Both the position numbers and the translations under genes were made by a program. Below are positions 607 to 18,400 of a DNA stretch of 64,000 nt, piece after piece; positions within the stretch are counted from its first letter, which is position 1; each line of letters begins with the position of its first letter. The stretch is from Rhizobium sp. Q54. GTDB lineage: Bacteria; Pseudomonadota; Alphaproteobacteria; UBA2966; CAIVPW01. The stretch is taken from positions 11,272 through 75,271 of the forward strand of contig CAMDCA010000001.1 in the NCBI GenBank assembly GCA_945889645.1, in the 5' to 3' direction. The notes below the pieces were generated by a model. It made no database searches. It saw only the letters and a list, made by a program, of their open reading frames with translations, and was not told where the DNA came from.

Positions 607-621
607 AACCCAAGGTCCGCG

Positions 622-1719
622 ATGTCGTTCAACACCTTCGGCCGCCTGTTCCGCTTTACCACGTGGGGCGAGAGTCATGGGCCCGCGCTCGGCGTCGTGG
701 TGGACGGCTGCCCGCCGCGCCTGGCCCTGACTGAAGCCGACATCCAGCCCTATCTGGACAGGCGCATGCCGGGGACGTCGCGCTTTGTCACCCAGCGCAA
801 GGAGCCGGACCAGGTACGCATCCTGTCCGGCACGTTCGAGGGCCAGACCACCGGCACGCCGATCAGCCTGATGATCGACAACGTGGACGCGCGCTCCAAG
901 GACTACGGCGACATCAAAGACAAGTTCCGTCCCGGCCACGCCGACTACACCTACGACCAGAAGTACGGCATCCGCGACTATCGTGGGTCTGGACGAGCGT
1001 CGGCACGCGAGACCGCGGCGCGCGTCGCCGCCGGTGCCGTCGCGCGCAAGGTGCTGGGGACCGGTGTGCGCATCCGCGGTGCGCTGATCCAGGTCGGCGT
1101 GCATACGGTCGATCGCAGCCGCTGGGACTGGGGTCAGGTCGGCAGCAATCCGTTCTTCTGCCCCGACGCCGAGACGGCCACGCGCTGGGAAAGCTACCTC
1201 GACGAAGTGCGCAAGGCCGGCTCGTCCGTCGGCGCGATCATTGAGGTCGTGGCCGATGGCGTGCCGCCCGGCTGGGGCGCACCGATCTACGGCAAGCTCG
1301 ACGCCGACCTCGCCTCCGCCATGATGAGCATCAACGCCGTGAAGGGCGTCGAGATCGGGTCCGGTTTCGCCGCCGCAGCGCTACGCGGCGAGGAGAACGC
1401 GGACGAGATGCGCGTCGCGCCGGGAGGCGCGCATTCGCGCAAGGATGGCAACGGCGTGAAGTTCACGTCCAACCACGCCGGCGGCATTCTCGGCGGCATC
1501 TCCAGCGGTCAGCAAGTTGTGGTGCGCTTCGCCGTCAAGCCGACCTCCAGCATCCTGACCCCGCGCAAGACGGTGAACGCGGCCGGCGAAGAGGTCGAAG
1601 TCTCGACCAAGGGCCGCCACGACCCGTGCGTCGGTATCCGCGCCGTGCCGATCGGCGAAGCGATGATGGCCTGCGTCCTCGCCGACCAGATGCTGCTGCA
1701 CCGCGCCCAGGTCGGCTAG
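622..1719 (+). CDS. aroC: chorismate synthase
   Basis: Full-length protein of 365 aa with the typical chorismate synthase N-terminus ([32 protein letters not shown]). It lies 16 nt after the fabI stop. Confidence 0.95.
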
Positions 1720-2928
1720 CTAGCGCCGCAGGATCGCCACCAGTTCGACGTGGGCCGACCATAGGAACTGGTCCACCGGCACCACCCGCTCCAAGCGATA
1801 GCCGCCGTCCACCAGCGTCCGCGCATCGCGGGCGAAGGTCGCGGGATTGCACGACACGTAGGCGATGGTGGCGACCTTGGAGCGCGCCAGCGCGTCGCAC
1901 TGTTCCTTCGCGCCGGCGCGCGGCGGGTCGAGCACGACCAGATCGATCTTCTTCAACTCGTCGCCTTGCAACGGGCGGCGCGATAGGTCGCGAGCCTCCA
2001 CCGTGACGCGCAGGTTGGCGCGCCGCGCCGCATGCTCCAAGGCATGCGCCGCGGCGGCGTTGCCTTCGACCGCGTGCACCGGCGCAAGCGCGGCGAGTGG
2101 CAGGGCGAACGCGCCGCAGCCGGCGTACAGGTCCGCAACGCGCTTGGCGCCTTTGGCGGCGGCCTTTACCTCGGCAAGCAGCGCGGCTTCGGCGGTGGGG
2201 CTGGCCTGAACGAAGGCGCCCGCCGGCAGATCGACCGCGACTCCGCCGAAGCGCAAGACGGGCGTTGCGAGTTGGGCAAGCAACTCCGGTTCCGCATTGT
2301 CTTCGGAACGCCACGAGACGCGCGCCACGCGATGGATGGCAGCGAAGCGTGCCAGCACGCCGCGCATGGCCGCGTTCGGTTCACTGCGTTGTTCGAGGAT
2401 GAGGTCAGTGCCGCTCTCGGTGTCGGTGATCTCGAAGACCGCGTCGCCCTTGGCGAGGGTGCGCAACGCAGGCACCAGTGCAGCGAGCGGGGGACTGAGC
2501 AGCGGGCAGGCATCGAGATTGACGATGCGATGGCTTTCGCGCGCGCGGAAGCCGAGCAGCACCTGCTCGCCGTCGCGCGTCACCGCGAGGCGGGCGCGGC
2601 GGCGCTCGCCAGCGGGCGTCGCAACGACGGGGGCGACGTCCGTGGTCAGGGCGCGATGCGCCAGGGTCTGCACCACATGCTGGCGCTTCCAGGCCAATAG
2701 TTCATCGGCGCGCCAGGTCTGCAGGTCGCAGCCTCCGCAGTCGCCGAAGTGGGCGCAGGCCGGACCGACACGCGCTGGGCCGGGTTCCAGCACCTCGACG
2801 AGGCGGCCGCCGCTGACGCGCACCAAGTCGCCGGGCACGGTGAAGGGCACGAACACCCGGCCCTGCGGCGTCTCGGCGATGCCGTGGCCCTGGGCGCCGA
2901 TCGACTCGATGCGCACCGTGTCAGCCAC
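1720..2928 (-). CDS. rlmD: 23S rRNA (uracil-5)-methyltransferase RlmD/RumA family (TRAM domain, 4Fe-4S cluster, SAM-dependent methyltransferase)
   Basis: N-terminal TRAM-like domain, a Cys cluster (CAHFGDCGGCDLQ) and a C-terminal class I methyltransferase fold (DLYAGCGAFALPLA). The gene is convergent with aroC and abuts it exactly. Confidence 0.85.
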   Translation of the reverse strand: MADTVRIESIGAQGHGIAETPQGRVFVPFTVPGDLVRVSGGRLVEVLEPGPARVGPACAHFGDCGGCDLQTWRADELLAWKRQHVVQTLAHRALTTDVAPVVATPAGERRRARLAVTRDGEQVLLGFRARESHRIVNLDACPLLSPPLAALVPALRTLAKGDAVFEITDTESGTDLILEQRSEPNAAMRGVLARFAAIHRVARVSWRSEDNAEPELLAQLATPVLRFGGVAVDLPAGAFVQASPTAEAALLAEVKAAAKGAKRVADLYAGCGAFALPLAALAPVHAVEGNAAAAHALEHAARRANLRVTVEARDLSRRPLQGDELKKIDLVVLDPPRAGAKEQCDALARSKVATIAYVSCNPATFARDARTLVDGGYRLERVVPVDQFLWSAHVELVAILRR

Positions 2929-3661
2929 GGCGCCTCGCGGCGATGAGGAACTCGCGGTTGCCGGCGGGGCCGAGCAGCGGGCTCGGGTCGGTGCCGAGGA
3001 CGGACCAGCCTTGCGTCTCCAGCCACGCGGCGATGCGCGCGACGACCTCGGCGTGCAGGGCCTCGTCGCGCACGACGCCGCCCTTCCCTACCCGCTCCGG
3101 TCCGACTTCGAACTGCGGCTTGATGAGGGCGACGAGCGTGCCGTTCGGCTTGGCAAGGCCTAGGGCGGCGGGCAGCACGACTTCGAGTCCGATGAAGCTG
3201 GCGTCGCACACGATTAGGTCGATGGGTTCGGGTACGTCGGCCGCGGTGAGCGCGCGCGCGTTGAGGCCTTCCTTCACCACGACGCGCGGGTCCTGGCGCA
3301 GCTTCCAGTCGAGCTGTCCTTTGCCGACATCGACCGCGTAGACGCGTGTAGCGCCGCCGTGCAGCAGCACGTCAGTGAAGCCACCGGTCGAGGCGCCGAC
3401 GTCGAGACAGATCTTGCCGCTCGCCTGCAGGCCGAAGTGGGCGAGACCGTGGGCGAGCTTGACGCCGCCGCGGCTGACCCACGGATGCGGCGCGCCGCGG
3501 ACCTCGACTTCGAGCGCGGGATCGACCATGCGGCCCGGTTTGTCGAGGCGCTGCTCGCCGCTGAAAACCACGCCGGCCATGACCAGGGCGTGGGCGCGGG
3601 CCTTGCTCTCTGCCAGTCCGCGATCGACCAGCAACTGGTCGAGTCGCGACTTACTCTTCAG
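2921..3661 (-). CDS. tlyA: TlyA family rRNA (cytidine-2'-O)-methyltransferase, also called hemolysin A; the start codon is uncertain
   Basis: S4 domain ([28 protein letters not shown]) followed by an FtsJ-like methyltransferase ([15 protein letters not shown]...IVCDASFI). There is no ATG, GTG or TTG in frame between the homology start and the dxs stop. The only candidate start is CTG at 3661, which overlaps the dxs TGA. Confidence 0.8.
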
Positions 3662-5625
3662 AGGGCGCCCGTGGTTCCGTTGGCGCGGACGGCGCGGGCC
3701 GCCGCGGCACCGATCGCCTCGACCGCCGCGGCACCGATCGCCTCGACCGCGGCGGTGACGATGGCGGGCGCCTGCAGGCCCGCCACCGCGAGCTGGTTGG
3801 CGGGCGCGTCTTGGTCGATGAAGCGGTCGGGCAGGAACAGGGTGCGCAGCTTGAGGCCAACGTCGAGCAGGCCGTTGCATGCCAGCACGTCGAGCACCTG
3901 CGCTGCAAAGCCACCAATCGCGGATTCCTCGACGGTGATGAGGACCGGGTGGTTGCGCGCCAGCGTATGCACCAAAGCGACGTCGATCGGCTTGGCGAAG
4001 CGGGCGTCGGCGACAGTCGCCGGAAAGCCAAGAGCGGCGAGCTCGTCGGCGGCGCGCATGCACTCGGCGAGTCGCGTACCGAGCGACAGGATGGCGACGG
4101 CGCCGCCTTCGCGCACGATGCGGCCGCGGCCGATTTCGAACGGCGCAGGATCGGGGGGAATGGCGATCCCGGTCGCCTCGCCGCGCGGGTAACGGAAGGC
4201 GCTGGGGCGGTCGTCGATGGCGACGGCGGTGGCGATGCTGCGCGCCAGTTCGGCCTCGTCGGACGGCGCCATCACGACGAAATCGGGCAACGCGGCCAAC
4301 ATGCCGACGTCATAAGAGCCGGCGTGGGTGGCACCGTCGGCGCCGACCAGCCCGGCGCGATCGATGGCGAAGCGCACGGGCAGCTTCTGCAATGCGACGT
4401 CGTGCACGACCTGGTCATAGGCGCGCTGCAGGAACGTCGAGTAGATGGCGGCGAACGGCTTGAAGCCTTCTGCGGCGAGGCCGGCGGCGAACGTCACGGC
4501 GTGCTGCTCGGCGATGCCGACGTCGAAGCAGCGATCGGGGAAACGCTCGGCGAACTTGTTTAGGCCGGTGCCGGACGGCATGGCGGCGGTGACGGCGACG
4601 ATGCGCCGGTCTTTCTCGGCCTGGTGGATCAACTGGTCGGCGAAGACAGTGGTGTAGGTCGGCGGCGCCGTCGGCTTGGCCGGCGCCTGGGCGCCGGTGA
4701 CGATGTCGAACTTGCCGACGCCGTGGAACTTGTCGTCCGACTTCTCGGCCGGCTCGTAGCCGTGGCCCTTTTTGGTGCGGACGTGAATCAACACCGGTCC
4801 CGCGGCGCGGAAGTCGCGCACGTTGCGCAACACGGGCAGCAGGCTGTCGATGTTGTGGCCGTCGAGCGGGCCGACGTAATAGAAGCCCAATTCCTCGAAC
4901 AGCGTGCCGCCGGTGGCGAGGCCGCGGGCGTATTCCTCAGCGCGCCGCGCCGTGCTGCGCAGCGAGCGCGGCAGCTTGGCGGCGACGCGCTTGGCCATGC
5001 TGCGGAAGCCGCGGTATTGGCGCGACGAGATCAGGCGCGAGAGATAGGCGCGCATCGAGCCGACGTTGCGCGAGATCGACATGTCGTTGTCGTTGAGGAT
5101 GACGATCAGCCGGCTCGACATGGCGCCGGCGTTGTTCATCGCCTCGTAAGCCATGCCCGCCGTCATGGCGCCGTCGCCGATGACACAGACGACGTTGTGG
5201 TCGCCACCCGACAGATCGCGCGCCACCGACATGCCGAGGCCAGCGGAGATGGAAGTCGAGGAATGCGCGGCGCCGAACGGGTCGTATTCGCTCTCGGCGC
5301 GGTTGGTGAAGCCGGACAGGCCCCCGGCCTGGCGCATGCTGGCGACGCGGTCGCGGCGGCCCGTGAGGATCTTGTGGGCGTGGGCCTGGTGGCCGACGTC
5401 CCAGATCAGGCGGTCGCGCGGCGTATCGAAAACGTAGTGCAGCGCCACGGTGAGTTCGATGACGCCGAGGCCGGCGCCGAGGTGGCCGCCGGTGCGCGAC
5501 ACGGCGCGGATGACCTCGCCGCGCACTTCGTCGGCGAGCGGCTGCAACTGCTCCGGCTTGAGGCCGCGCAAGTCCGCCGGCAGGCGGATGATGTCGAGAA
5601 GTTCGGTGGAGCGCGAATAGGGCAT
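3658..5625 (-). CDS. dxs: 1-deoxy-D-xylulose-5-phosphate synthase
   Basis: 655-aa protein with a TPP-binding transketolase-like fold ([32 protein letters not shown]). It sits downstream of ispA, giving the canonical xseB-ispA-dxs order. Confidence 0.95.
3701..3748. repeat. perfect 24-bp tandem duplication (GCCGCGGCACCGATCGCCTCGACC, two copies) inside the 3' end of dxs
   Basis: Read directly from the sequence. It duplicates eight residues (AAVEAIGA) in the DXS C-terminal tail. Confidence 0.9.
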
Positions 5626-5639
5626 CGGGCTTCTTATTC

Positions 5640-6557
5640 TTAGTGGCTGCGTTGCACGACAAACCGGGCGAGCCGGCGCAAGAAAGCGCCGCGTTCGCCG
5701 AACGCATCCAGGTGCGCCACGGCCTGATCGGCGAGCATGGTCGCCTGGGTGCGGGCGCGTTCGGGTCCCAACAGGGCAACGAACGTCGCCTTGCCGAGAG
5801 TAGCATCCTTGCCGACCTTCTTGCCCGTCGCGGCTTCGGTGCCCTCGACGTCCAACAGATCATCGACGATCTGGAAGGCCAGGCCGAGGTCGCGGGCATA
5901 GGCCTTGAGCGCCTGGCGTGCCGAGGCCGGTGCTTTGCCGAGGACGGCGCCCGCCTCGCAGGCGAATGAGATCAGGGCGCCGGTCTTGAGCTGCTGCATG
6001 CGGGTGATGGTGCCGATGTCGGCCGGCTTGTGCTCGACCACCAGGTCGATCATCTGGCCCCCGACCATGCCGCGCGGGCCGGCCGCCTCGGCCAACGCGC
6101 GCACCAACTCAAGGCGAACCTCGGCGTCGGCGTGGGTTTCCGGGTGCGCCATGACCTCGAAGGCGAGCGGCAGCAATGCGTCACCGGCCAGCACCGCGGT
6201 GGCCTCGTCGTACTGCTTGTGCAGGGACGGCTGGCCGCGGCGCATGTCGTCGTCGTCCATGCAAGGCAGGTCGTCGTGCACCAACGAATAGGTGTGGGCG
6301 AATTCCACGGCGACGGCGACGCGCAATGCGGCGCGGCGCGGCACTGAGAACAACTCGGCGGTGGACAACGCCAGCACCGGACGGAAGCGCTTGCCCGGCG
6401 CCAGCACGGCGTAGCGCATCGCCTCGGCGAGGCGGCGCTCCGGCCCGCTCGGCTCCGGCAGCAGTGTCTGCAGGACGGCGTCGATCTCGGCGGTGGCGGC
6501 GGCCATCGCCTCGGCCACGCCGATCACGCCTTTGCCAGGTTGGGCCGACAAGGTCAT
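5640..6557 (-). CDS. ispA: polyprenyl diphosphate synthase (farnesyl or geranylgeranyl diphosphate synthase)
   Basis: Carries the first and second Asp-rich motifs ([17 protein letters not shown] and FQIVDDLLD). The likely ATG at 6557-6555 overlaps the xseB stop as TGATG. The ORF track extends further upstream to 6650. Confidence 0.9.
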
Positions 6558-6814
6558 CAGTCGGGTTGGATGGGAACAGCGGTGACCGTGCCACCGCGCA
6601 ACTCGATGCGCTCGACCTGCTCGCGCGCCGACTCCAGCTTGGCCTCGCAATGGCGCTTGAGCTGGGTACCGCGCGTATAGGTGGCGATCGATTCCTCCAG
6701 GCTGACCTCGCCGCTTTCCAGCCGGCGCACGATCTCCTCCAGGTCCTCAAGGGCGCGCTCGAAGGTCATGGTGCGGATGTCCGCCGGGATGTCGGATGAG
6801 TCGTCGCGGGGCAT
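6557..6814 (-). CDS. xseB: exodeoxyribonuclease VII small subunit
   Basis: About 85-aa protein (MTFERALEDLEEIVRRLESGEVSLEESIATYTRGTQLKRHCEAKL). It is in the conserved position upstream of ispA. The start is one of two in-frame ATGs at 6829 or 6814. Confidence 0.85.
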   Translation of the reverse strand: MPRDDSSDIPADIRTMTFERALEDLEEIVRRLESGEVSLEESIATYTRGTQLKRHCEAKLESAREQVERIELRGGTVTAVPIQPD

Positions 6815-6972
6815 TTCGGGGCGGGGCATTGCAGGCCTTTGGCCGAGCCTTGGGTTGTGCGGCGCGGGGTCAAGTTTAGGCACCGCTTCCGGCGCCCTTC
6901 AAGCAGGCCGATGCTTGACGGTGACGGGTGTGTCATAGGCTCACGGCAGAATCGCGGCAACCCTAGCGGGCA

Positions 6973-7911
6973 CTAGCGACCCCTGGCCGCCATGAGCTCG
7001 CGCACATGAGCGGCGGCGGATGCGCCCAGGGCGTCCAGGTCATAGCCGCCTTCGAGCAGCGAGACGACGCGGCCACGGGCGTGGCGTGCGGCAACAGCGC
7101 ACAGCGCGCGGGTTACCCAGGCGTAGTCGTCCTCGGTCAGGCCGAGGCCGCCAAGCGGATCGGCGTGATGCGCATCGAAGCCGGCCGAGATCAACACCAA
7201 CTCCGGCGAGAAGGCGTCGAGCTTGGGCAGGATGACGTCCTCGAACGCGCGGCGGAATTCGGCTCCACCGGAGCCGCCGCGCAGCGGGACATTGACGATG
7301 TTGCCCGCCACCCCCTGCTCGTCGGCGTGGCCGGTACCCGGATAGAACGCGTCCTGGTGGGTGCTGGCGTAGAACAAGCCGCGGTCGGATTCGAACATGT
7401 GCTGGGTGCCGTTGCCGTGGTGGACGTCGAAGTCCACGACGGCCACGCGGGCGAGCCCGTGCACCGCGCGCGCCTGCAGCGCGCCGATGGCGGCGTTGTT
7501 GAAGAAGCAGAAGCCCATGGCCCGCGCCCGCTCGGCGTGATGCCCGGGCGGCCGCACGGCGCAGAACGCGTTGGCGACCTCACCCGCCATCACCGCGTCC
7601 ACCGCAGCGGTCGCGGCACCGGCGGCGCGCAGCATGGCAACGCCGGTGCCGGCGCCCAGGGCGGTGTCAGGATCAATGCGGACATAGCCCTCCGTCGGCA
7701 CGGCAGCGAGGACTGTCTGCACGTAGCGCGGATCGTGTACGCGGCCGATCGCGTCGAGCGTGGCCTCGGGCGCGTCGCGCCATGCGAGGGCGGCGAACTC
7801 CGGCTGGCGCAGGGCCGCGAGGACCGCCTGCAGCCGCGCGGGGTTCTCATAGTGCCCCGGCTCCATGCGATGCAGCAGACAGTCCGGATGGGTGAAGACG
7901 GCGGTGGTCAT
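6973..7911 (-). CDS. histone deacetylase / acetoin utilization (AcuC/AphA) family amidohydrolase
   Basis: HDAC-superfamily motifs are present (RPPGHHAERARAMGFCFFNN, DFDVHHGNGTQ, SAGFDAHHADPLGGLGLT). The likely start is MTTAVFTHPD at 7911. The upstream part of ORF 6973..8049 reads as GC-rich junk. Confidence 0.8.
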   Translation of the reverse strand: MTTAVFTHPDCLLHRMEPGHYENPARLQAVLAALRQPEFAALAWRDAPEATLDAIGRVHDPRYVQTVLAAVPTEGYVRIDPDTALGAGTGVAMLRAAGAATAAVDAVMAGEVANAFCAVRPPGHHAERARAMGFCFFNNAAIGALQARAVHGLARVAVVDFDVHHGNGTQHMFESDRGLFYASTHQDAFYPGTGHADEQGVAGNIVNVPLRGGSGGAEFRRAFEDVILPKLDAFSPELVLISAGFDAHHADPLGGLGLTEDDYAWVTRALCAVAARHARGRVVSLLEGGYDLDALGASAAAHVRELMAARGR

Positions 7912-8214
7912 GTCCCGCTCCCGTACCGACACCGTAGGCGCAGACAAGGTACGGCCGCGAACGGGCGCGGCGCCGGAACGGCGGCGAACCGGGCCGAACG
8001 GCGGGCGATGCGGCGGCCAACCGCCGTTCTGGCCCGTTGATCGCCGCATCTACGGGCAGATTCGCCCCTCCGGCCCGACCTCCGCCGGAGCTGCCGTTGT
8101 TCTCCGTAGATACGGGCGTCGGCGCGCTTACGGGCGATCTGGGCAGGCGCGACGTGCGCGCGCGTCCCCGTGGCGGGCGTGGGCCGCGCGGATGCTGGCT
8201 GGGAGCGAGGGTTC

Positions 8215-8246
8215 ATCACAATACGTAATGTATACTACGTATTGTG
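8215..8246. promoter_or_regulatory. perfect 12-bp inverted repeat TCACAATACGTA-N8-TACGTATTGTGA; a candidate operator in the AT-rich region upstream of hipA
   Basis: Read directly from the sequence. The element sits in a roughly 180-bp AT-rich stretch whose composition differs sharply from the flanking DNA. Confidence 0.5.
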
Positions 8247-8314
8247 ACATTTCAAGGGCGCTCTCGCTTTTCCGTCGATCCACGCTTGGAAGAGCTCTGG
8301 GGGTCGTATAAATG

Positions 8315-8357
8315 ATAGTTTATACGTTGACAAAATTGCAACAAACGTATAAACTAT
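8315..8357. promoter_or_regulatory. 14-bp inverted repeat ATAGTTTATACGTT-N15-AACGTATAAACTAT overlapping a sigma70-like promoter (TTGACA at 8327-8332, then TATAAA/TAAACT)
   Basis: Read directly from the sequence. It shares the ACGTATA core with the upstream palindrome and lies about 50-90 bp before the hipA ATG. Confidence 0.5.
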
Positions 8358-8404
8358 AATTTATTAGTGGAAAGATTCGCAGCCAAAGATAAAGTAGATT
8401 TTAT

Positions 8405-9634
8405 ATGGCGGTCGCTCTCTGGGGCAAAGTTTACAACAACAGCTTCGCCGGTGAATTGCGGCAGGAGCCCGGGGGCCGCTGCGTCTTTACGTATGACTCG
8501 ACCTACATCCAGTCAAAGGGAGCGCCCATCGCCTACACCTTGGCCGTTCGGGCCGAGCCCCACATCTGCGAACCGGGGCTCCACCCCTTCTTCGACAACC
8601 TGGTGGCCGAGGGCTGGCTCCGCAATGCCCAGGCGAGAGCCCTCAGGGTTGACACCAGCAACCGCTTCGCGCTGCTTCTGGCCTTCGGCCACGACACCGC
8701 CGGTGCCGTCAGTATCGTTGATCCTGCGCCCGTGCAGGAACCAGTGATCGATCTCGATTCCGTCACTGCCGCCGCTCTCAGCAGCCGCGCCTCAATCTCC
8801 GGAATCCAGAGAAAGCTTCTCGCCGTCCAAGAGGGGAAGCGCTTCCGTCCGGCGAAGCGGGAGGAAACCTCGACCTACATCGCCAAGTTTTCGTCGGGGA
8901 CCCTTACCGACATCGTGGAGAACGAATACCTCACGACAATTTCCAACAAAGCATTGCTGCCCGACCACGACATCGTGGACGTGCAAGTGGGCGTCCTCGA
9001 CGGAATCCAGGAAAAGGCCGTGCTCGTGAAACGCTTCGACCGGTTGTCGAGCGGCAAGAAGCGGCACTTCGAGGAGTTCAACCAACTCATGGGCCGTCGC
9101 TCCGGCGACGACAAGTACGAGGCCGCCTACGAAGACATTGCCTCGTTCCTCCGCGGGGTTCCGGGGCATACAGCGGTCGATCTGCTCCGACTCTTTGAGC
9201 GCATCCTGGTTTGCTTTCTCACCGGCAATACCGATGCGCATCTGAAGAACTTCGCGATGTTCCATACGGCGGACGGCCTGAGATTGACGCCTGCCTACGA
9301 TCTCGTGGCGGCAGCCCTGTACCCCGAATACCAGACGCTGGCCCTCGCGGTGGGCAACGCCGCCAACCTTGGAATCGCCAATCTGAAGCCGAAGCACTTC
9401 CTGTCCCTTGGCGAGGCCTACGGTCTCGACGCCAAGCAAGTTCTGCGCGTCGTAAGCGCACTCGACTCGCGCCGCGCGGCAGCGGCCAAAGCAGTGCTAC
9501 GAGCAGCAAAAAGGATCGAGGCGGAGACGCTCGGTCAGAACCTTGTCGAATTGATGGAGAAAAGATGGAACGGGAGTTTCGCCTCAACTGGGCAGTACTT
9601 GTCGAAGAAGCAATCCGGCGACGACGGAAATTGA
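8405..9634 (+). CDS. hipA: HipA-family serine/threonine kinase toxin (type II toxin-antitoxin system)
   Basis: HipA N-terminal domain (MAVALWGKVYNNSFAGELRQ...CVFTYD), a Gly-rich ATP loop region (SISGIQRKLLAV) and the catalytic DAHLKNFAM motif. The gene has lower GC than the surrounding DNA. Confidence 0.85.
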   Translation: MAVALWGKVYNNSFAGELRQEPGGRCVFTYDSTYIQSKGAPIAYTLAVRAEPHICEPGLHPFFDNLVAEGWLRNAQARALRVDTSNRFALLLAFGHDTAGAVSIVDPAPVQEPVIDLDSVTAAALSSRASISGIQRKLLAVQEGKRFRPAKREETSTYIAKFSSGTLTDIVENEYLTTISNKALLPDHDIVDVQVGVLDGIQEKAVLVKRFDRLSSGKKRHFEEFNQLMGRRSGDDKYEAAYEDIASFLRGVPGHTAVDLLRLFERILVCFLTGNTDAHLKNFAMFHTADGLRLTPAYDLVAAALYPEYQTLALAVGNAANLGIANLKPKHFLSLGEAYGLDAKQVLRVVSALDSRRAAAAKAVLRAAKRIEAETLGQNLVELMEKRWNGSFASTGQYLSKKQSGDDGN

Positions 9635-10038
9635 AGCTGACTCAGAAGCAGCTTGGCGAACTCGCGAAGGTGAGCACGCCGACGATCTCGCGGTTCGAGC
9701 AGGTGGACAAGGACATCCAAATGTCATCCGTCCTCTCGATCCTCGACGTCATTGGAATGACCGACAAACGGACGCTCGTTTTTCGCCACGAGGAGTCCAA
9801 GTACGACTCGGGACGCGAGGCAGTGGCCTTCTGGGGTGAGGAGGCCGGCCGGCCGGTCCTCTGCCGAATCGCGCGCGAGGCATTGGACGATCACTTCTCT
9901 GACAGAGATCGACTCCGTCCGGAGGCAGCCTTCGCAAAACACCGGAAGGAGATCGAATCGCTGGCGCGGCGGAAGTACGTCCTCGATCAGATAGAACCAG
10001 ATGGCTCAATCCTTGTCGGCACCCTCGAGATCGCGTGA
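9565..10038 (+). CDS. XRE-family helix-turn-helix DNA-binding protein (HipB-like) with an extra C-terminal domain of about 90 aa
   Basis: The ATG at 9565 is preceded by GGAGAAAAG. The HTH reads LKLTQKQLGELAKVSTPTISRFEQ. The gene starts 70 nt inside the 3' end of hipA in a different frame. The 9211..10038 ORF upstream of this ATG is overlap noise. Confidence 0.75.
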   Translation: MEREFRLNWAVLVEEAIRRRRKLKLTQKQLGELAKVSTPTISRFEQVDKDIQMSSVLSILDVIGMTDKRTLVFRHEESKYDSGREAVAFWGEEAGRPVLCRIAREALDDHFSDRDRLRPEAAFAKHRKEIESLARRKYVLDQIEPDGSILVGTLEIA

Positions 10039-10080
10039 GGGCGACGACACGCAGAGAGCGTTCACCGTCGCTCCGGCGCC

Positions 10081-11772
10081 TTACGTCGCCATCGCCTTGC
10101 CGGCCTGGAACTTCGCGGCCTCTTCCTCGACCAGCTCTTTCTTAGACAGCTTGCCGACCATGGTCTTGGGGAGTTGGTGGCGGAACTCGACTTCGCGCGG
10201 CAGTTCGTGCTTGCCGATGCGGGCGCGGAGGAAGTCGATCAGCTCGGCCTGGGTGACGTGGGCGCCGTCCCTGCAGCGCACGAAGGCCTTCACCGCCTGG
10301 CCGCGGTGAGCGTCCGGCACGCCGATGACGGTGCATTCGGCGACGGCGGCGTGTTCGTAGATCGCCTCTTCGACGTTGCGCGGGTAGACGTTGAAGCCGC
10401 CGACCAGGATCAGGTCCTTGATGCGGTCGATGAGGAAGACGTAGCCGTCTTCGTCCATCGTGCCGATGTCGCCGGTGCGCAGGCGGCCGTCAACGATCGC
10501 CGAAGCGGTTTCGTGCGGGCGGTTCCAGTAGCCGGCCATCACCTGTGGGCCCTGGATGCAGATCTCGCCACGCTCGCCGGGGCCGACGACGCGGCGCGGA
10601 TCGTCGCGGTCGGTGATGACGATGGTGGTGCCGGGCAGCGGCTGGCCGATCGAGCCGGTCTTGTTGACGCCGTAGAGCGGGTTGCAGGTGGCGACCGGTG
10701 AGGCCTCGGTGAGGCCGTAGCCCTCGACCAGCTTGCAGCCGGTGTGCGCCTCGAAGCTCTGCTTGACCTCGACGGGGAGTGGCGCACCGCCGGAGATGCA
10801 GAACTTGACCGAGCGCAGGTCGAACTGCTTGATCTTGGGCGAGTGATTGATGGCGGCGAACATGGTCGGCACGCCGGGCACCAGGGTCGGACGCTTCTTG
10901 TCGATGTCGCGCAGCACGTCGTCCAAGACGAAGCGCGGGTGCAGGATGATCTCGCCGCCGATGTAGAGCGCGAGGTTCATTGCCACGGTCATGGCGAAGA
11001 CGTGGAAGAACGGCAGCGCGCCGAGCATCTTCTCCTCGCCGGGCCTGCAGCCTTCGAGCCACAGCATCGCCTGGTGCGCGTTGGCGAACAGGTTGGCGTG
11101 GGTCAGCATGGCGCCCTTGGGCGCGCCGGTGGTGCCGCCGGTGTACTGCAGCACCGCGATGTCCTTGGCCGGGTCGATGCCCACCGCCACTGGACGCCCG
11201 GCATTTTGCAACAGGCGCGCGAACGAGATGTCGTTGTCGTTGCGCGCGCCGTGGTAGCGCTGGCGGCGCTTGAACAGCGTGTATAGCGCTGACTTCGGGA
11301 ACGGCAGCACCTCGGGCAGAGTCCCGACCACCAGCTGGCGCAGCGGCGACGTACCGACCAGGCCGGACACCTTGGGGTACAGAACCTCGAGGTCGAGGGT
11401 GACCATCACCTCGGTGCCGGAGTCCTCCACTTGGTGGCGAATCTGCGGCTCGGCATAGAGCGGGCTGTAGTTGACGACCGTGGCGCCGGCGCGCAGGGCA
11501 CCAAAATACGAAATGATCGAGTGCGGCGAGTTGGGCAGGAACAGGCCGACCCGCGCCCCTTTGCGCACGCCAAGCTCCTGGAAGCCGCGGGCGGCCTTTT
11601 CGACCAGGGCGCCGACCTCGGCATAGGTGTAGCGGCGGCCGAGGAAATCGAGGCACGGGTTGTTGGGGAACCGCGCCACCGAATCCGACAGCAGGGTGTA
11701 CAGGGGCCGGGCCGGGATCTCGGCATCCCAGCGAATCTTCGGCGGGTAGCTCTTACTCCAGGCGCAATCCAT
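10081..11772 (-). CDS. fadD: long-chain-fatty-acid--CoA ligase (AMP-binding acyl-CoA synthetase)
   Basis: AMP-binding motifs are present (YTGGTTGAPKGAMLTHANL, GYGLTE, TGDIGTMDEDGYVFLIDRIKD). The real start is at MDCAWSK (ATG 11772). Confidence 0.9.
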   Translation of the reverse strand: MDCAWSKSYPPKIRWDAEIPARPLYTLLSDSVARFPNNPCLDFLGRRYTYAEVGALVEKAARGFQELGVRKGARVGLFLPNSPHSIISYFGALRAGATVVNYSPLYAEPQIRHQVEDSGTEVMVTLDLEVLYPKVSGLVGTSPLRQLVVGTLPEVLPFPKSALYTLFKRRQRYHGARNDNDISFARLLQNAGRPVAVGIDPAKDIAVLQYTGGTTGAPKGAMLTHANLFANAHQAMLWLEGCRPGEEKMLGALPFFHVFAMTVAMNLALYIGGEIILHPRFVLDDVLRDIDKKRPTLVPGVPTMFAAINHSPKIKQFDLRSVKFCISGGAPLPVEVKQSFEAHTGCKLVEGYGLTEASPVATCNPLYGVNKTGSIGQPLPGTTIVITDRDDPRRVVGPGERGEICIQGPQVMAGYWNRPHETASAIVDGRLRTGDIGTMDEDGYVFLIDRIKDLILVGGFNVYPRNVEEAIYEHAAVAECTVIGVPDAHRGQAVKAFVRCRDGAHVTQAELIDFLRARIGKHELPREVEFRHQLPKTMVGKLSKKELVEEEAAKFQAGKAMAT

Positions 11773-11999
11773 GGACTCTTCTTCCCCGCGCCCGCCCAGG
11801 CTTGCAACACCCGGGCGCGGGGCCCCGTGCCTCCCCTTGGGCACATCGTAGCCCGGCCCCCCGCTGGGGGGCCAGGAGAAGGGCCGCTTGCGATTGGGCG
11901 CCACGCGGTCATACTCCCGCTCGAGAACCCACCTTGCCCGCAAGCCCCGACAAGCGCGCCACGGCCGACGTGCCGACTATCGCCGGCACCTCGCTGGCC

Positions 12000-12728
12000 A
12001 TGGCCGACGCCACGGTCAACAAGGCCCGCATCCGGCGCATGCTGGCCGCGTGCGACGTCGACCCGGGGCGCTATGCGGCCAAGGCCGACCCTTCGCTGTT
12101 GGGCATCGACTGCATCCTAGCGATCCGCAAGAGCAAGGTGCGGGCGCCCGACCGCCTCGTACATCTGGAACAGCGCATGCGTATCACCCAGACCTTTGCC
12201 GCCGACGAAAAGCTCGGCGTGCGCGCCAAGGTCGAAACGGTTGAGCAGGCCGACGGCGGCGAGAAGGCGCGCTCATTGTTCGAATTCATGGGCCGCGACG
12301 GCACGCCGGTGGCGACCCTGTGGTCCACCACCATGGTGGCCGAACCATCCTGGCTGCGCGACGTACCGCCGGTCCAAGGCGACCCGCGCGCCGACTGGCG
12401 GCTGGCCGGGCGCAAGCTCCTCAACTCCGCCAAAGTACAGGCGTACTCGGAGGAAACCGGCAACCGGCTGCACTTCGATCCGGCCTATGCGGTGCGCAAC
12501 GGACTGCGCGCGCCGGTCGCCAATCCGCTGATGACCCTGACGTGGGCGGTCGAGGCGATCTCCGTCCAGGGCCTGCCGGCGTCGTTCGAGATGAATGCGC
12601 ATTTCCAGCAACCGCTGCATTGGGACGACGGTGTCGACGTCCTGGTGCACGAGTCCGGCGGCCGCATCCATGCCGTGCGCTGCGTGTCGTCAGCCGGCGC
12701 GCTGGTGTCCGAAATCGAGGTCACGTGA
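12000..12728 (+). CDS. MaoC-like (R)-hydratase / hotdog-fold acyl dehydratase family protein
   Basis: Weak hydratase-2-like motif (SEETGNRLHFDPAYA). The gene is divergent from fadD. The start at 12000 is inferred from the ORF 11802..12728. Confidence 0.45.
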   Translation: MADATVNKARIRRMLAACDVDPGRYAAKADPSLLGIDCILAIRKSKVRAPDRLVHLEQRMRITQTFAADEKLGVRAKVETVEQADGGEKARSLFEFMGRDGTPVATLWSTTMVAEPSWLRDVPPVQGDPRADWRLAGRKLLNSAKVQAYSEETGNRLHFDPAYAVRNGLRAPVANPLMTLTWAVEAISVQGLPASFEMNAHFQQPLHWDDGVDVLVHESGGRIHAVRCVSSAGALVSEIEVT

Positions 12729-13696
12729 ACAGACCCCTGAATGGCGCGCGCATCGTTGCCGCGACCGAATCCGCCATCGCCGAGGCCGTGCGGTTCTTGC
12801 GCGACGGACGGCTGGTGGCCTTTCCGACCGAGACCGTCTACGGCCTGGGCGCCGACGCCAGCAGCGACGACGCCGTCGAGGCGATCTATCGCGCCAAGGG
12901 CCGGCCGCCGGAAAATCCGCTCATCCTCCACGTCGCCACGCTGGCCGAAGCGGAGACCCTGGCGGAATTCAACGACGACGCACGCAAGCTGGCGGCGGCG
13001 TTCTGGCCGGGCGCCGTGACGCTGGTGCTGAAGCGCCGTGCCGGCGCGCGCATCTCGTCGCTGGCGACGGCGGAGCTGGACACCGTGGCGCTGCGTATTC
13101 CGGATCATCCGGTGGCGCTGGCGTTGTTGCGCGCGGCCGGGCGGCCGCTGGCGGCACCGAGCGCCAATCCCTCGGGGCGCGTCAGCCCGACGCTGGCCGA
13201 GCATGTGGCGAGCGGACTGGGACCGGCGGTATCGATGATCCTGGACGGCGGCCAGTGCCGTGTCGGCATCGAGTCCACGGTCGTTGCGCTGGACGGCGAC
13301 CAGCCGCGCATCCTGCGCCCGGGCGGCATCGCTGCCGGCGAGATCGAGCGCGTGCTGGGCAAGTCGGTGCGGACCGGGCCGGACAAGCCGGTGCGCGTCC
13401 AGGCGCCTGGGCAAATGCTCAGTCACTATGCGCCGCGGGCGGGGGTGCGCCTGAACGCAACGAGCGCGGGCGCGAACGAAGGCGTCCTGACGTTCGGCAC
13501 GGCGCAGATCGACGGCGCGCGCATGGCGGTGAACCTGAGCGCCAAGGGCGACCTGGGCGAAGCGGCCGCCAATCTGTACGCCGCCCTGCGCGTGCTCGAC
13601 GACGCCGGCGTGGCCGCCATCGCCGTGGTTCCCATTCCCGAAGACGGCATCGGCGCCGCCATCAACGATCGCCTGCGGCGCGCCGCGGCGCGCTAA
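12725..13696 (+). CDS. tsaC: L-threonylcarbamoyladenylate synthase (Sua5/YwlC/TsaC family; YrdC domain plus Sua5 C-terminal domain)
   Basis: YrdC motif (VAFPTETVYGLGADASSDDAVEAIYRAKGRPPENPLILHV). The GTG start overlaps the upstream stop as GTGA. The ORF track's N-terminal extension to 12320 is overlap noise. Confidence 0.85.
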   Translation: MNRPLNGARIVAATESAIAEAVRFLRDGRLVAFPTETVYGLGADASSDDAVEAIYRAKGRPPENPLILHVATLAEAETLAEFNDDARKLAAAFWPGAVTLVLKRRAGARISSLATAELDTVALRIPDHPVALALLRAAGRPLAAPSANPSGRVSPTLAEHVASGLGPAVSMILDGGQCRVGIESTVVALDGDQPRILRPGGIAAGEIERVLGKSVRTGPDKPVRVQAPGQMLSHYAPRAGVRLNATSAGANEGVLTFGTAQIDGARMAVNLSAKGDLGEAAANLYAALRVLDDAGVAAIAVVPIPEDGIGAAINDRLRRAAAR

Positions 13697-13706
13697 TCTG
13701 GCCGCC

Positions 13707-15137
13707 ATGGCGAGCGCGGCACCAGCAGGAATTCCGGCCTCGGTTGTGGAGCGGTTGCAGGCGGCGGCGGGAGCCGGCGGCTGGATCGCCGACCCCGAGC
13801 GCATCACGCCGTACCTGATCGACCAGCGCAAACGCTATCGCGGGCGCACGCCTCTCGTCCTTCTGCCGGACACGACCGCCAAGGTGGCGGCGATCGTCAA
13901 GGCTTGCGCCGAGACGCGCACGCCTTTAGTGCCGCAGGGCGGCAACACCGGATTGGTCGGCGGTGCGACGCCGTCGGAGCGCGGCGACGCGGTGGTCGTC
14001 AACCTAGGGCGCATGAATCGCATCCGCGCGCTGGACACGGCGGCGGCAACAGTGACCGCCGAGGCGGGCTGCATCCTGGCGTCGGTGCAAAAGGCGGCCG
14101 ACGACGCGGGACTGCTGTTCCCCCTTAGCCTGGGTGCGGAGGGAAGCTGCCAGATCGGCGGCAACCTGGCGACCAACGCTGGCGGACTGCAGGTGCTGCG
14201 CTATGGCAGTGCGCGGGCGCTGACGCTCGGACTCGAAGTCGTACTGGCGGACGGGCGCGTGTGGGACGGCCTGCGCGGCCTGTACAAGGACAATACCGGC
14301 TACGACCTGAAGCAGCTGTTCGTCGGCGCCGAGGGCACGCTGGGCATCATCACCGCCGCGGTGCTGCGCCTGTTCCCGCGGCCGGCCCAGCGCGTCACGG
14401 CGCTGGCCGCGGTGGCCGACGTCGATGCGGCGCAGACGGTCCTGGCGACGATGCGGGCGGCGAGCGGCGACCGCATGAATGCGTGCGAGATCATGTCCGA
14501 ACGTGCGCTGGGGTTTGCGGTGAAGCACGCGGCCAAGGGCGCGGCGCCGTTCGCAGCAAACCACCCGTGGACGCTGTTGCTGGAATTCGAGGCGGGGGCC
14601 GGCGACGAGTTGCGCAGCGTCATCGAGAATGCGCTCGGCGGGCTGATCGACGCGGGCCACGTGCGCGACGCGGTGGTTGCGGCGAGCACCGCGCAGGCCC
14701 AGACGATGTGGCACCTGCGCGAAAGCATCCCCGGCGCCCAGGGGCGCGAGGGCGGCAGCATCAAGCACGACATCGCGGTGCCGCAGGCGCGCATGGCGGA
14801 ATTCGTGCGCAGCGCCGAAGCGGCGGTGACGCGGGCGCTACCGGGCGTGCGGGTGTGCGCCTTCGGGCACCTCGGCGACGGCAACCTGCACTACAACCTG
14901 TCGCAGCCGGTTGGCATGGATGAGGCGCTGTTCCTGGCCGAATGGGACCGATTGGCGCGCATCGTCCACGACCTGACGGTGGCGATGGGCGGCAGCATCA
15001 GCGCCGAGCACGGCATCGGCCAGATGAAGCGCGACGAATTGGTGCGCATCAAGCCGCCGGTCGAGATCGAGATGATGCGCGCGGTGAAGCGCGCCCTGGA
15101 CCCGGACGGCATCATGAATCCGGGCAAGGTGCTGTAG
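13707..15137 (+). CDS. FAD-binding oxidoreductase (FAD-linked oxidase; D-lactate/glycolate oxidase GlcD-like)
   Basis: FAD_binding_4 domain (LVPQGGNTGLVGGATP) and a C-terminal FAD-oxidase domain. The protein is 476 aa. Confidence 0.8.
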   Translation: MASAAPAGIPASVVERLQAAAGAGGWIADPERITPYLIDQRKRYRGRTPLVLLPDTTAKVAAIVKACAETRTPLVPQGGNTGLVGGATPSERGDAVVVNLGRMNRIRALDTAAATVTAEAGCILASVQKAADDAGLLFPLSLGAEGSCQIGGNLATNAGGLQVLRYGSARALTLGLEVVLADGRVWDGLRGLYKDNTGYDLKQLFVGAEGTLGIITAAVLRLFPRPAQRVTALAAVADVDAAQTVLATMRAASGDRMNACEIMSERALGFAVKHAAKGAAPFAANHPWTLLLEFEAGAGDELRSVIENALGGLIDAGHVRDAVVAASTAQAQTMWHLRESIPGAQGREGGSIKHDIAVPQARMAEFVRSAEAAVTRALPGVRVCAFGHLGDGNLHYNLSQPVGMDEALFLAEWDRLARIVHDLTVAMGGSISAEHGIGQMKRDELVRIKPPVEIEMMRAVKRALDPDGIMNPGKVL

Positions 15138-15187
15138 CGCCAACTGGGGAGTCTGGATTGCTTCGCGCGGAACGCGCGCTAGGCGTG

Positions 15188-15730
15188 CTACTTGCGCGCG
15201 AGGTTGTACTCGAACTCCTCGGGCGTCAGCTGGATGCCGACGATGATCTCGTATGCCACCGGGCTCAACCCTGCAGCCGGAGCCAGGGTTTCATAGATCT
15301 CCGGGCGGACGGTGACCGAGCTGACGCCAGCGATGTAGGCGAGCCGCGTCGTGAAGAGCTGCTTGGCGATGATCAGGCCCTGGGAGTCGATGACGGCGAC
15401 GAAATACGGCACGTCGATGGTTCCGGGCAGCGCGGCGTTGCGGCGCACGCCGGCGACCGCGAACGACACCGTCGCAACAGCGTCGCGGCGGGACGTGCGG
15501 CAGTTGTACTGCAGCCCGGACAGCCGTATCTGTGCCGCCATGTTGTCGTCGGTGGCGGCCGCTCCGGGCGCGAACCGCGTCAGCGTCTCGGCGCCGCCGA
15601 GGAACACGGCGCGCGGGCACGTCAGGTTGGTGCCGTCCCGGTATTGCACGCAGCCACCGAGGCCAAGCAGCGTGGCGAGGCCAAGCAGCACCAGAGCGCG
15701 CCGCGCGAAATCGGACTGCAATACGTGCAA
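15188..15730 (-). CDS. hypothetical lipoprotein
   Basis: Signal peptide with a lipobox (LLGLATLLGLGGC). I recognise no catalytic motif. Confidence 0.5.
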   Translation of the reverse strand: MHVLQSDFARRALVLLGLATLLGLGGCVQYRDGTNLTCPRAVFLGGAETLTRFAPGAAATDDNMAAQIRLSGLQYNCRTSRRDAVATVSFAVAGVRRNAALPGTIDVPYFVAVIDSQGLIIAKQLFTTRLAYIAGVSSVTVRPEIYETLAPAAGLSPVAYEIIVGIQLTPEEFEYNLARK

Positions 15731-15945
15731 GGAAGGTCGGTCCCCAGGCCCAGTTCGTGGCCAATTCGTGGTGTGTGGCGTTGGTCAGGCCGACGGGCGG
15801 TGCCGCCAAATACTGTTATCGGGCACCCGCTTCGTCTAGAGTGCGAGCCCTTCCGCCGCGGCCCGAGACTACAGCGCCCCGGCCGCGTGCGGCAACCGCA
15901 ACCGGGCCGCGAACTTGACCTTCGACGCCCTTTGAGCGACGCCCT

Positions 15946-16914
15946 TTGAGCGCCCTGAACCAGACGATGGCGAAACCGGCGGTCCGTATCCTGCTTGCCA
16001 GCCCGCGCGGCTTCTGCGCCGGGGTGGATCGTGCCATCCAGATCGTCGAGATGGCGCTGGGCAAGTATGGCGCGCCGGTCTACGTGCGCCACGAGATCGT
16101 CCACAACCGCACCGTCGTCGAGGACCTGCAGGCCCAGGGCGCCGTGTTCGTCGACGAGCTCGACGAGGTGCCCGAGGGCGCCCCGGTGGTGTTTTCGGCC
16201 CATGGCGTGCCCAAGGCAGTGCCGGTCGATGCCAAGCATCGCAAGCTGATCGCGGTGGATGCAACGTGCCCGCTGGTCAGCAAAGTGCACCGCGAAGCCG
16301 AGCGCCACTGGCGCGACGGCCGCGAGGTGGTGCTGATCGGCCATGCCGGGCACCCCGAAGTGATTGGGACTTTGGGACAACTGCCGCCGGGCAGCATTCA
16401 TCTGATCGAGGATGCCGCGGATGCGGCCGCATTCACGCCGCGCGATGCGAGCCAGCTGGCGTTCGTGACCCAGACCACGCTGTCGGTGGACGAGACCGAG
16501 GCGGTGGTCGCCGTTCTGCGCCAACGCTTTCCGACCATCGCGGCGCCGCCGCGCGACGATATTTGCTACGCCACCACCAACCGCCAGCAGGCGGTGAAGG
16601 AAGTCGCGCCGCGCTGCGACGCCATGGTGGTCTTGGGCGCACCGAATTCGTCCAACTCGGTGCGGCTCGTCGAGGTGGCCAAGCGCGCCGGATGCGGCAA
16701 GGCGTTCCTGGTGCAGCGCGCCAGCGAGATCGACTGGGCGCAACTGGGTACGCCGTGCACGGTCGGCATCACCGCCGGTGCATCGGCGCCGGAGCGCCTG
16801 GTGCAGGAAGTCATCGAAGCGTTCTCGGCGCGGTACTCGGTGACGGTGGACGACATCGTACTGAAGACGGAAGACGTGCGCTTCAAGTTGCCGCGCCTGC
16901 TGGAAAAAGCGTAA
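15946..16914 (+). CDS. ispH: 4-hydroxy-3-methylbut-2-enyl diphosphate reductase
   Basis: LytB family ([22 protein letters not shown]...), 322 aa. Confidence 0.95.
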
Positions 16915-16937
16915 GGCATCCAGGCGGCCGCGCATCG

Positions 16938-17891
16938 ATGGCGTTCTTCACGAAACTCAGCCCGGCTGAGGTCGCCACGTTCCTGGCCGAGCACGATATC
17001 GGCACGCTGGTCGAGTGCGACGGCATCACCGCGGGCTCCGAGAACTCGAACTACCGGCTGCGCACCACCGCCGGACTGTTCATCCTGACGCTCTACGAGA
17101 AGCGCGTGCGGCTCGAAGACCTGCCGTTCTTCCTCGACCTGATGCAGCACCTGGACCGCGCCGGCATCCACTGCCCGAAGCCCATCGCCGGGGCCGACGG
17201 CCAGGCGCTGCGCACGCTGGCCAAGAAGCGCGCGGCGATCTTCAGTTTCCTGGAGGGCCATTCGGTCGCGGTGCCCGAGGCGTGGCACTGCAAGGCGCTG
17301 GGCGCACAGCTGGCCGAGATGCATGCCGCCTGCGCGAACTTCGGCGGAAGACGCGCCAACGACCTGTCGCTAAGGGGCTGGCAGCGCGACTTCGCCAAGT
17401 GCCGCGACGGCGCCGACACGGTGCAGGCGGGCCTGCGCGAGATCATCGAGCACGAGTTGCAGTACCTGAGCGCGCATTGGCCGCAGGGCCTGCCGGCCGG
17501 CGTCATCCACGCCGACCTGTTCCCCGACAACGTGTTCTTCGTCGGCGACCGGGTGTCGGGGGTGATCGACTTCTACTTCGCCTGCAACGACTTCCTCGCC
17601 TACGACATCGCTGTGTGCCTGAACGCATGGTGCTTCGACGACGACCGCACGTTCAACTTCACCAAGGGCGAGCGGCTGCTGGCCGCGTATGGCCAGGTGC
17701 GCGCGCTGACGTCCGAGGAGAAGCAACAGCTGCCCGTGTTGCTGCGCGGCGCGGCGATGCGGTTTCTGCTGACACGGCTGTACGACAAGCTGCATCCCAA
17801 GGGCACCAACCCGAAAGACCCCCTCGCCTACCTGCGGCGCCTGACGGTCCACCAGGGCATCAAATCACCCAAGCTGTACGGGCTGCGCTGA
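16938..17891 (+). CDS. thrB: homoserine kinase type II (APH/ChoK-like fold)
   Basis: Start at [22 protein letters not shown]. Kinase motifs [12 protein letters not shown] and DFYFACND are present. The ORF-track extension to 16266 overlaps ispH and is rejected. Confidence 0.9.
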
Positions 17892-17892
17892 C

Positions 17893-18348: not shown

Positions 18349-18352
18349 CGCC

Positions 18353-18400
18353 GCGCTCGTTGCGAGACTGGATTGCGTCGCTTCGCTCGCAATGACGTTC
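18353..18400. repeat. REP-like palindromic element copy A (single arm, CTGGATTGCGTCGCTTCGCTCGCAATGACG)
   Basis: It shares the GTCATTGCGAG...GCAATCCAG core with the elements at 30385-30467 and 38659-38734. It lies immediately 3' of rnhA. Confidence 0.7.

Follow-up and report, generated by a model that had tools for sequence, protein, structure and literature searches.

Within the 64,000-nt window analysed here (positions 11,272 to 75,271 of contig CAMDCA010000001.1, assembly GCA_945889645.1, Rhizobium sp. Q54; coordinates are those of this window unless a locus is named), a module of ~1.73 kb probably encodes a horizontally acquired, toxin-first type II toxin-antitoxin (TA) cassette of the HipA family, in which the kinase gene hipA is followed and overlapped by a gene for a bipartite antitoxin/repressor that joins a HipB-like helix-turn-helix (HTH) domain to a C-terminal DUF1488 domain. 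The case for this TA reading is built from the domains of both proteins, the HipB-like fold of the HTH, the strict linkage of the two genes, their operators and translation signals, the decay of the toxin gene alone in a close relative, the accessory nature of the cassette and a precedent from Shewanella. Feature coordinates are collected in Table 1.

The first gene encodes the full-length HipA kinase that the original prediction, made from the DNA letters without database searches, had recognised by its catalytic hallmarks. On one polypeptide, its product carries both N-terminal subdomain 1 (Pfam Couple_hipA, E = 2e-22, 79.9 bits against a cut-off of 22.5), which sets HipA, HipE and HipF apart from HipT and the short kinases, and the HipA_C kinase core (Pfam, E = 5e-41, 141 bits against a cut-off of 30.5), and it also matches the NCBIfam model TIGR03071 (71.9 bits against a cut-off of 27.8). 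The motifs are intact, and comprise the Gly-rich loop RASISGIQRK (with S130 and K137), K161, RFDR (residues 210-213), HFEEF (221-225), the catalytic GNTDAHLKN (D277 and N282) and the Mg-binding YD (D299). Three of these regions (RASISGIQRK, GNTDAHLKN and PAYD) align with the same motifs in Shewanella HipA (4pu5), and the kinase motifs are invariant across the family described below. Kinship to the kinases of E. coli (phmmer E ~1e-13) and Shewanella (3e-17) is distant.

The second gene was likewise foreseen as a two-domain antitoxin candidate, and hidden Markov model (HMM) searches identified its C-terminal part as DUF1488 (Pfam, E = 1.7e-14, 54 bits against a cut-off of 22), a functionally uncharacterised domain. 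The N-terminal part matches HTH_3 (25.1 bits against a cut-off of 23), and the couple_hipB model TIGR03070 gave E = 2e-9, yet remained below its cut-off (37 against 72 bits). The AlphaFold2 (AF2) model of the protein has a predicted local distance difference test (pLDDT) score of 88 and contains four helices of at least 4 residues within residues 9-62. When this model was searched with Foldseek, the top match was the DUF1488 protein 2gpi (E = 2e-5, TM-score 0.79 normalised to the target, root-mean-square deviation 2.5 Å over 91 columns), and the best matches to the HTH were HipB proteins, namely those of Legionella (8ezt), Pseudomonas fluorescens (9u9g), Shewanella (4pu7) and E. coli (3dnv). 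A sequence search of the Protein Data Bank with the DUF1488 domain returned no significant match; the kinship to 2gpi comes from the Pfam HMM and the fold search only.

As had also been proposed, the antitoxin open reading frame (ORF) begins 70 nt inside the 3′ end of hipA, in the +1 frame and behind a good ribosome-binding site. Public gene calls for the window locus and its closest relatives instead start at TTG 9631 and yield a 135-aa product that overlaps hipA by 4 nt. These shorter models are truncated and the long form from ATG 9565 is real, because antitoxin residues 1-22 (MEREFRLNW..LVEEAIRRRR) are kept throughout the family, even in members with an overall identity of only 41%, make up the first HTH helix of the AF2 model, and correspond to a helix that is also kept in the protein encoded downstream of hipA in Azospirillum. 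Constraint acts on every codon position of the overlap (0.68, 0.43 and 0.91 bits, compared with 1.6-1.85 bits at wobble positions just outside it), so the overlap is a case of true dual coding. The gene calls of the Joint Genome Institute (JGI) at two loci (L087 and L088) use the full-length form; other public models cut the antitoxin to 92-136 aa (L084 1166-1633, L086 2422-2892, L001 7161-7634 and L096 2596-3072), and such truncated models lose the HTH and leave a product labelled DUF1488 only. The long overlap thus leads to systematic mis-annotation by gene callers. Stand-alone DUF1488 genes of 91-94 aa beside hipA were considered as a sign that DUF1488 by itself is the antitoxin, an argument that was abandoned since the calls at L084 and L086 proved on reading to be truncated models of an HTH-DUF1488 ORF of 155-156 aa; the third call of this size (L085) has the same layout.

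Eighty loci were recovered when one genome per species was scanned, and both genes are intact at 66 of them. At every intact locus hipA (409-425 aa) lies directly upstream of the HTH-DUF1488 gene and overlaps it by 70-109 nt (70 nt at 24 loci, 76 nt at 29, 91 nt at 11, and otherwise 100 or 109 nt), with a constant relative frame; the antitoxin start is ATG in all 66, with (AT)GGAG upstream in nearly all. These loci come from Alpha-, Gamma- and Deltaproteobacteria, Opitutales and Elusimicrobia metagenome-assembled genomes (MAGs), so that the comparison of gene neighbourhoods suggested as a check on the arrangement revealed the same hipA-first, overlapping order across several phyla. A search with the antitoxin found 592 homologues, and the best 120 of these 592 are proteins of 133-193 aa (most of them 155-157) with the HTH and DUF1488 architecture, save for truncated calls that retain DUF1488 only.

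Upstream of hipA, a sigma-70-type promoter that agrees with the consensus at 10 of 12 positions, and whose TTGAC is kept at the same place in related loci, is accompanied by three predicted operators, O1, O2 and O3. In the window each is a perfect ATAAA-N6-TTTAT, the spacing between them is ~41 bp, and O3 occupies the usual Shine-Dalgarno place of hipA. This motif occurs 169 times in 64 related upstream regions, compared with 6.2 ± 2.6 in shuffled sequences, and at 0.011 per 200 nt in control DNA; the matches cluster at -98/-97 (O1), -57/-56 (O2) and -16/-14 (O3) from the hipA ATG. The conserved layout is strong comparative evidence for autoregulation, presumably by a dimeric HTH protein. The two genes also differ in their translation signals, with a Shine-Dalgarno-like motif before hipA at 10 of 65 loci and before the antitoxin gene at 58 of 65.

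The palindromes between 8215 and 8357 had been put forward together as sites for the HTH protein, a proposal that mixed two elements: the predicted operators lie at 8305-8404, and the palindrome at 8216-8247 belongs elsewhere. The latter is perfect, has 12-nt arms (TCACAATACGTA-N8-TACGTATTGTGA) and is unique in the window. It is missing from a 91%-identical cassette copy at another site, whose homology begins at O1, and is kept upstream of the deacetylase gene in a cassette-free relative (L094 4866-4897), and for these reasons it most likely serves as operator/promoter for the host deacetylase gene, which is divergent (6973-7911, minus strand), while a role as TA operator is ruled out. In the cassette-free relative the palindrome overlaps a sigma-70-like promoter (TTGACT-17-TACATT), which corresponds to a minus-strand promoter-like site of the window running from 8255 to 8227. 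The AT-rich stretch before hipA is thus two separate elements, the host palindrome and the promoter and operators of the cassette. The deacetylase gene is the nearest gene upstream of hipA, with its start 494 nt away, and between its start codon and its putative promoter/operator is an unusually long, 294-nt non-coding leader (7912-8205, GC content 0.75) that contains imperfect GC-rich palindromes at 8148-8175 and, in the part scanned, no Rfam match.

Composition sets the module apart from its surroundings. The low-GC islet noted at the outset is borne out by a GC content of only 0.38-0.44 at 8206-8499, and the module as a whole (8305-10038, 1734 nt) has a GC content of 0.588, versus 0.677 for the entire window, which ranks lowest or second-lowest among 1246 sliding windows of the same size (mean 0.677, standard deviation 0.023, minimum 0.584 for the one starting at 8201). 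The suggested check for horizontal origin also points to foreign DNA, because GC content at third codon positions is 0.77 in hipA and 0.72 in the downstream gene, versus 0.86-0.91 in flanking genes. In agreement with the original prediction, the borders of the islet have no mobility hallmarks of the kinds sought: no integrase among the genes adjoining the cassette, no tRNA gene in positions 1-20000 and no flanking direct repeats. No terminator was detected, and the sole match in the Rfam scan was a chance match of a miRNA model to the inverted repeat of O1/O2.

Environmental assemblies contain the exact locus, in the gene order dxs-ispA-xseB-deacetylase / cassette / acyl-CoA synthetase-Sua5. 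The 91%-identical copy (L096) sits in a different genomic context, other copies adjoin integrase genes, and relatives with an 81-82%-identical deacetylase have other cargo, or apparently nothing, in the same slot. Together with the low GC content, these comparisons indicate that the cassette is accessory and horizontally acquired. In three relatives (L091-L093, with an 82%-identical deacetylase; 4080-4865 and 6071-6891), the slot flanked by the acyl-CoA synthetase and deacetylase genes holds a DUF559/MTES_1575 (Vsr-like) gene plus a 98-aa ORF, and a Phd-PIN TA pair lies between the deacetylase gene and xseB. The region is thus a hot spot of small accessory cassettes. At L096, the last 38 nt of the antitoxin gene are shared with a 268-aa gene that has an Abi_C (abortive infection C-terminus) domain (3035-3841).

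One relative with a 93%-identical antitoxin at the same chromosomal site (L003 1-3436; ENA ERZ1305449 contigs) has lost ~1.8 kb by deletion, including the 5′ portion of the deacetylase gene, the TA promoter and the first ~198 codons of hipA, but retains an intact antitoxin gene. Such toxin-only decay is the pattern expected if the toxin is harmful.

Under the TA reading, the HipA kinase would, by homology to HipA and HipT kinases, phosphorylate an aminoacyl-tRNA synthetase and thereby arrest translation. The N-terminal HTH of the antitoxin is predicted, from the operator layout at related loci, to bind O1, O2 and O3 and repress the operon, and the antitoxin would neutralise HipA by direct binding, with DUF1488 proposed to supply an extra toxin-contact or regulatory surface. 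The HipA:antitoxin ratio would be set at translation, with hipA having no Shine-Dalgarno sequence and a start flanked by O3, and the antitoxin would be translated efficiently because a strong GGAG is embedded in the 3′ end of hipA, probably in coupling with hipA translation.

The DUF1488 domain also occurs outside of this family. An exhaustive phmmer search with the domain gave 239 clusters at 50% identity, in which the longer members are fusions to Fic, to NTP_transf_8 (PF12281) nucleotidyltransferases or to TIR/SEFIR. In Caulobacteraceae/Phenylobacterium-type MAGs (L076-L081), a module 39-45% identical to antitoxin residues 24-157 forms the C-terminus of DUF4172-Fic proteins of 459-494 aa (for example, L077 3038-4456 and L078 3029-4444), with no hipA nearby. 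Because DUF1488 recurs with nucleotide-using effector enzymes of unrelated folds, it is more likely to act in regulation, in sensing or as an adaptor than as a plug specific for HipA. The fusion proteins P0347, P0353, P0345, P0382 and P0370 carry NTP_transf_8, TIR/SEFIR, or a 230-aa N-terminus without a Pfam match. The only DUF1488 structure, 2gpi (Shew_3726), has an alpha+beta fold and has been a structural-genomics orphan with no assigned function since 2006, and DUF1488 cassettes are common in Xanthomonas integrons. More tentatively, and with the odds against it, DUF1488 may be a promiscuous effector-associated regulatory/antitoxin domain that acts on HipA in trans and on Fic AMPylase, NTP_transf_8 or TIR enzymes in cis, in which case the HipA/HTH-DUF1488 pair would be a previously uncharacterised class of HipA TA systems and the 70-109-nt overlap a device that ties antitoxin synthesis to toxin translation.

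Several observations weigh against the TA reading. The AF2 model of HipA alone is poor (pLDDT 66), the family is known almost only from MAGs, and the plasmids in PLSDB contain no antitoxin homologue. In addition, no internal promoter for the antitoxin was detected, so an excess of antitoxin rests on translation signals only. The fusion of DUF1488 to Fic, NTP_transf_8 and TIR also speaks against an inhibitor specific for HipA, and a role as sensor or adaptor would explain it equally well or better.

That last point leads to the alternative that survives best, although we regard it as unlikely, in which the same parts serve primarily in abortive infection or phage defence: DUF1488 would sense a phage- or stress-derived cue and release or activate HipA, and the HTH would bind DNA and sequester HipA as in canonical HipBA. 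The placement of DUF1488 at the C-terminus of conflict-type effectors (DUF4172-Fic, NTP_transf_8, TIR/SEFIR) and its frequent cassettes in Xanthomonas integrons are consistent with such a role, as are the Abi_C gene that follows the 91%-identical copy and the location of copies in variable slots and next to integrases; phage defence has also been suggested for Hip kinases with Stl-like partners (Gerdes et al., 2021; PMC8262856). However, PADLOC produced weak, insignificant matches only for both proteins, the window has no neighbouring defence genes and its flanks are housekeeping, and DUF1488 has neither a known ligand or partner nor a function assigned to its sole structure. A defence role is also compatible with an ordinary type II TA system, so it does not fully exclude the TA reading.

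It is much less probable that the two genes are not a TA pair at all, with HipA a non-toxic signalling kinase and the HTH-DUF1488 protein an ordinary transcription factor of the operon, possibly a substrate of the kinase, that does not neutralise it by binding. Toxicity in the HTH-DUF1488 family is a prediction, Table 1 of the published survey lists no experimentally analysed module for the clades with reversed gene order (VI, VII and IX; PMC8262856), and YjjJ/HipH is a Hip kinase without a separate antitoxin. Nevertheless, this reading is opposed by the linkage and overlap of the pair at 66 of 66 loci, the decay of hipA alone next to a preserved partner, the patchy, mobile distribution and foreign composition of the cassette, the retention of all catalytic residues of toxic HipA kinases, and the finding that a different toxin-first hipAB pair is toxic and neutralised in experiments (PMC8978831). 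Least credible is the notion that the antitoxin is the 135-aa product starting at TTG 9631 and that the 70-nt overlap is an artefact of ORF extension, for although gene callers chose this model for the window locus and its close relatives and a TTGA-type 4-nt overlap is the commonest layout of coupled genes, residues 1-22 are conserved at the protein level and build helix 1 of the HTH, the same helix occurs in the Azospirillum protein (46% identity), the upstream ATG is present at 66 of 66 loci behind GGAG, and the JGI calls use the long form.

Returning to the TA reading, the HTH-DUF1488/HipA family would provide the first functional context for DUF1488, in a widespread family with defined parts: three operators, a promoter, a toxin start that lacks a Shine-Dalgarno sequence and a strong internal ribosome-binding site. 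Databases present these loci as 'HipA + DUF1488 protein' or as a seeming orphan HipA, so TA surveys based on such calls misclassify or miss the family. If DUF1488 neutralises the toxin or senses a trigger, it would be a new antitoxin or sensor module in the Hip kinase repertoire, and would connect HipA systems with the other effectors that share the domain, namely those of the Fic, nucleotidyltransferase and TIR types. The literature searched contains no link of DUF1488 to a TA system, nothing useful on 2gpi/PF07369 or NTP_transf_8, and no description of a DUF1488 antitoxin domain, a conserved dual-coding overlap, the three-operator design, or DUF1488 as a recurring part of Fic, nucleotidyltransferase and TIR proteins.

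Table 1. Features of the candidate hipA/HTH-DUF1488 cassette (window coordinates) and toxin-first plasmid loci used for comparison (locus coordinates).
Feature	Coordinates	Strand	Description	Basis
Operator O1 (predicted)	8305..8326	+	CGTATAAA-N6-TTTATACG, core ATAAA-N6-TTTAT at 8308-8323; abuts the -35 hexamer	
Sigma-70-type operon promoter (predicted)	8327..8355	+	TTGACA 8327-8332, 17-nt spacer, TAAACT 8350-8355	
Operator O2 (predicted)	8349..8364	+	ATAAACTATAATTTAT; covers the -10 hexamer	
Operator O3 (predicted)	8389..8404	+	ATAAAGTAGATTTTAT; ends one base before the hipA ATG	
hipA	8405..9634	+	409 aa, HipA-family Ser/Thr kinase, putative toxin	Pfam, alignment to 4pu5
GGAG ribosome-binding site	9556..9559	+	inside hipA codons (L-M-E-K-R-W), 5 nt before the ATG	
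Two-domain putative antitoxin/repressor gene	9565..10038	+	157 aa	Pfam, AF2, Foldseek
Dual-coding overlap	9565..9634	+	70 nt; codes for HipA residues 387-409 and for antitoxin residues 1-23 (HTH helix 1) in the +1 frame	
HipB-like XRE HTH	residues ~9-67, nt 9589-9765	+		Pfam HTH_3/HTH_31 at residues 18-67
DUF1488 domain (PF07369)	residues ~74-157, nt 9784-10035	+		Pfam match at residues 74-150
Toxin-first plasmid loci	L097 1977-4135; L098 1501-3680		A. brasilense plasmid NZ_CP059451 (L097); S. meliloti pSymA CP140933 (L098)	

Among known systems, canonical hipBA of E. coli K-12 resembles the window module in the catalytic motifs of its HipA kinase and in its HipB-type XRE HTH. The E. coli operon has several upstream palindromic operators for autoregulation (Schumacher et al.). 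It differs in having the antitoxin gene upstream, a single-domain HipB of 88 aa and an operator sequence unlike that of the window; by the same token, the window departs from canonical hipBA in that its HTH gene is downstream and encodes a two-domain protein of 157 aa rather than a single-domain HipB of ~70-105 aa. A YjjJ-like split, which the original prediction had entertained, does not hold, since HipA reaches 22 bits with the NCBIfam YjjJ model, whose cut-off is 401, and the N-terminus of HipA is Couple_hipA and not an HTH: in YjjJ/HipH the HTH is at the N-terminus of a monocistronic kinase, whereas in the window it is the N-terminus of a separate downstream protein. HipBST was rejected as well, given that Couple_hipA is part of the 409-aa kinase and there is neither a HipS gene nor an upstream HTH gene.

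The toxin-first order, in turn, had been taken as possibly undescribed, and this it is not, because one survey describes it (PMC8262856) and one case has been validated in Shewanella putrefaciens CN-32 (PMC8978831). The survey includes 8 hipAB and 12 hipEB modules of reversed order, 20 of 1,239 (Gerdes, Baerentsen and Brodersen, mBio 2021; PMC8262856), which like the window have a full-length kinase with N-subdomain 1 encoded first and an HTH putative antitoxin downstream. Its main text contains no DUF1488, long conserved overlap or operators. The window family may be HipE (clade IX), one of the hipAB subclades (in clades VI/VII) or an unsampled group. The Shewanella CN-32 HipAB pair, located on the mobile genomic island GI21, is likewise toxin-first, has an XRE-family HipB of ~150 aa that is larger than the classical protein, and is toxic, neutralised and autoregulated (PMC8978831). 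In that pair, a gene for a HipA of 448 aa overlaps hipB by 4 nt, and the 152-aa HipB carries its HTH in the C-terminal part, whereas in the window the antitoxin has the HTH at its N-terminal and DUF1488 at its C-terminal end and the genes share 70 nt.

A looser parallel to DUF1488 is offered by the hyperpromiscuous antitoxin domain Panacea (PanA; Kurata et al. 2022; Ernits et al. 2023), reportedly a small domain, often fused to an HTH, that occurs with many unrelated toxin domains. The likeness is one of analogy only, with no kinship in sequence or fold. Outside of the HipA systems, DUF1488 is mostly fused in cis to enzymes instead of forming its own antitoxin gene, and a neutralising function for it would be conjectural.

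In a plasmid collection drawn mostly from cultured isolates, the nearest HipA relatives (36-38% identity) are on Azospirillum brasilense plasmids and Sinorhizobium meliloti pSymA, where they are annotated as 'HipA domain-containing protein' or 'type II toxin-antitoxin system HipA family toxin' and are followed by a 'hypothetical protein' or 'transcriptional regulator'. These loci are toxin-first like the window, and their downstream proteins (334 and 327 aa, respectively) have no DUF1488. The Azospirillum partner has an N-terminal HTH homologous to that of the window (46% identity over residues 7-65), but where the window protein has DUF1488 it carries ~260 aa of uncharacterised C-terminal sequence. 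The two genes overlap by 25 nt in Azospirillum, compared with 70 nt in the window, and do not overlap in Sinorhizobium. The shared gene order, the common HTH of the partner and its different C-terminal part therefore suggest that the window system is part of a broader toxin-first 'HipA + HTH-X' group, in which X appears to be variable.

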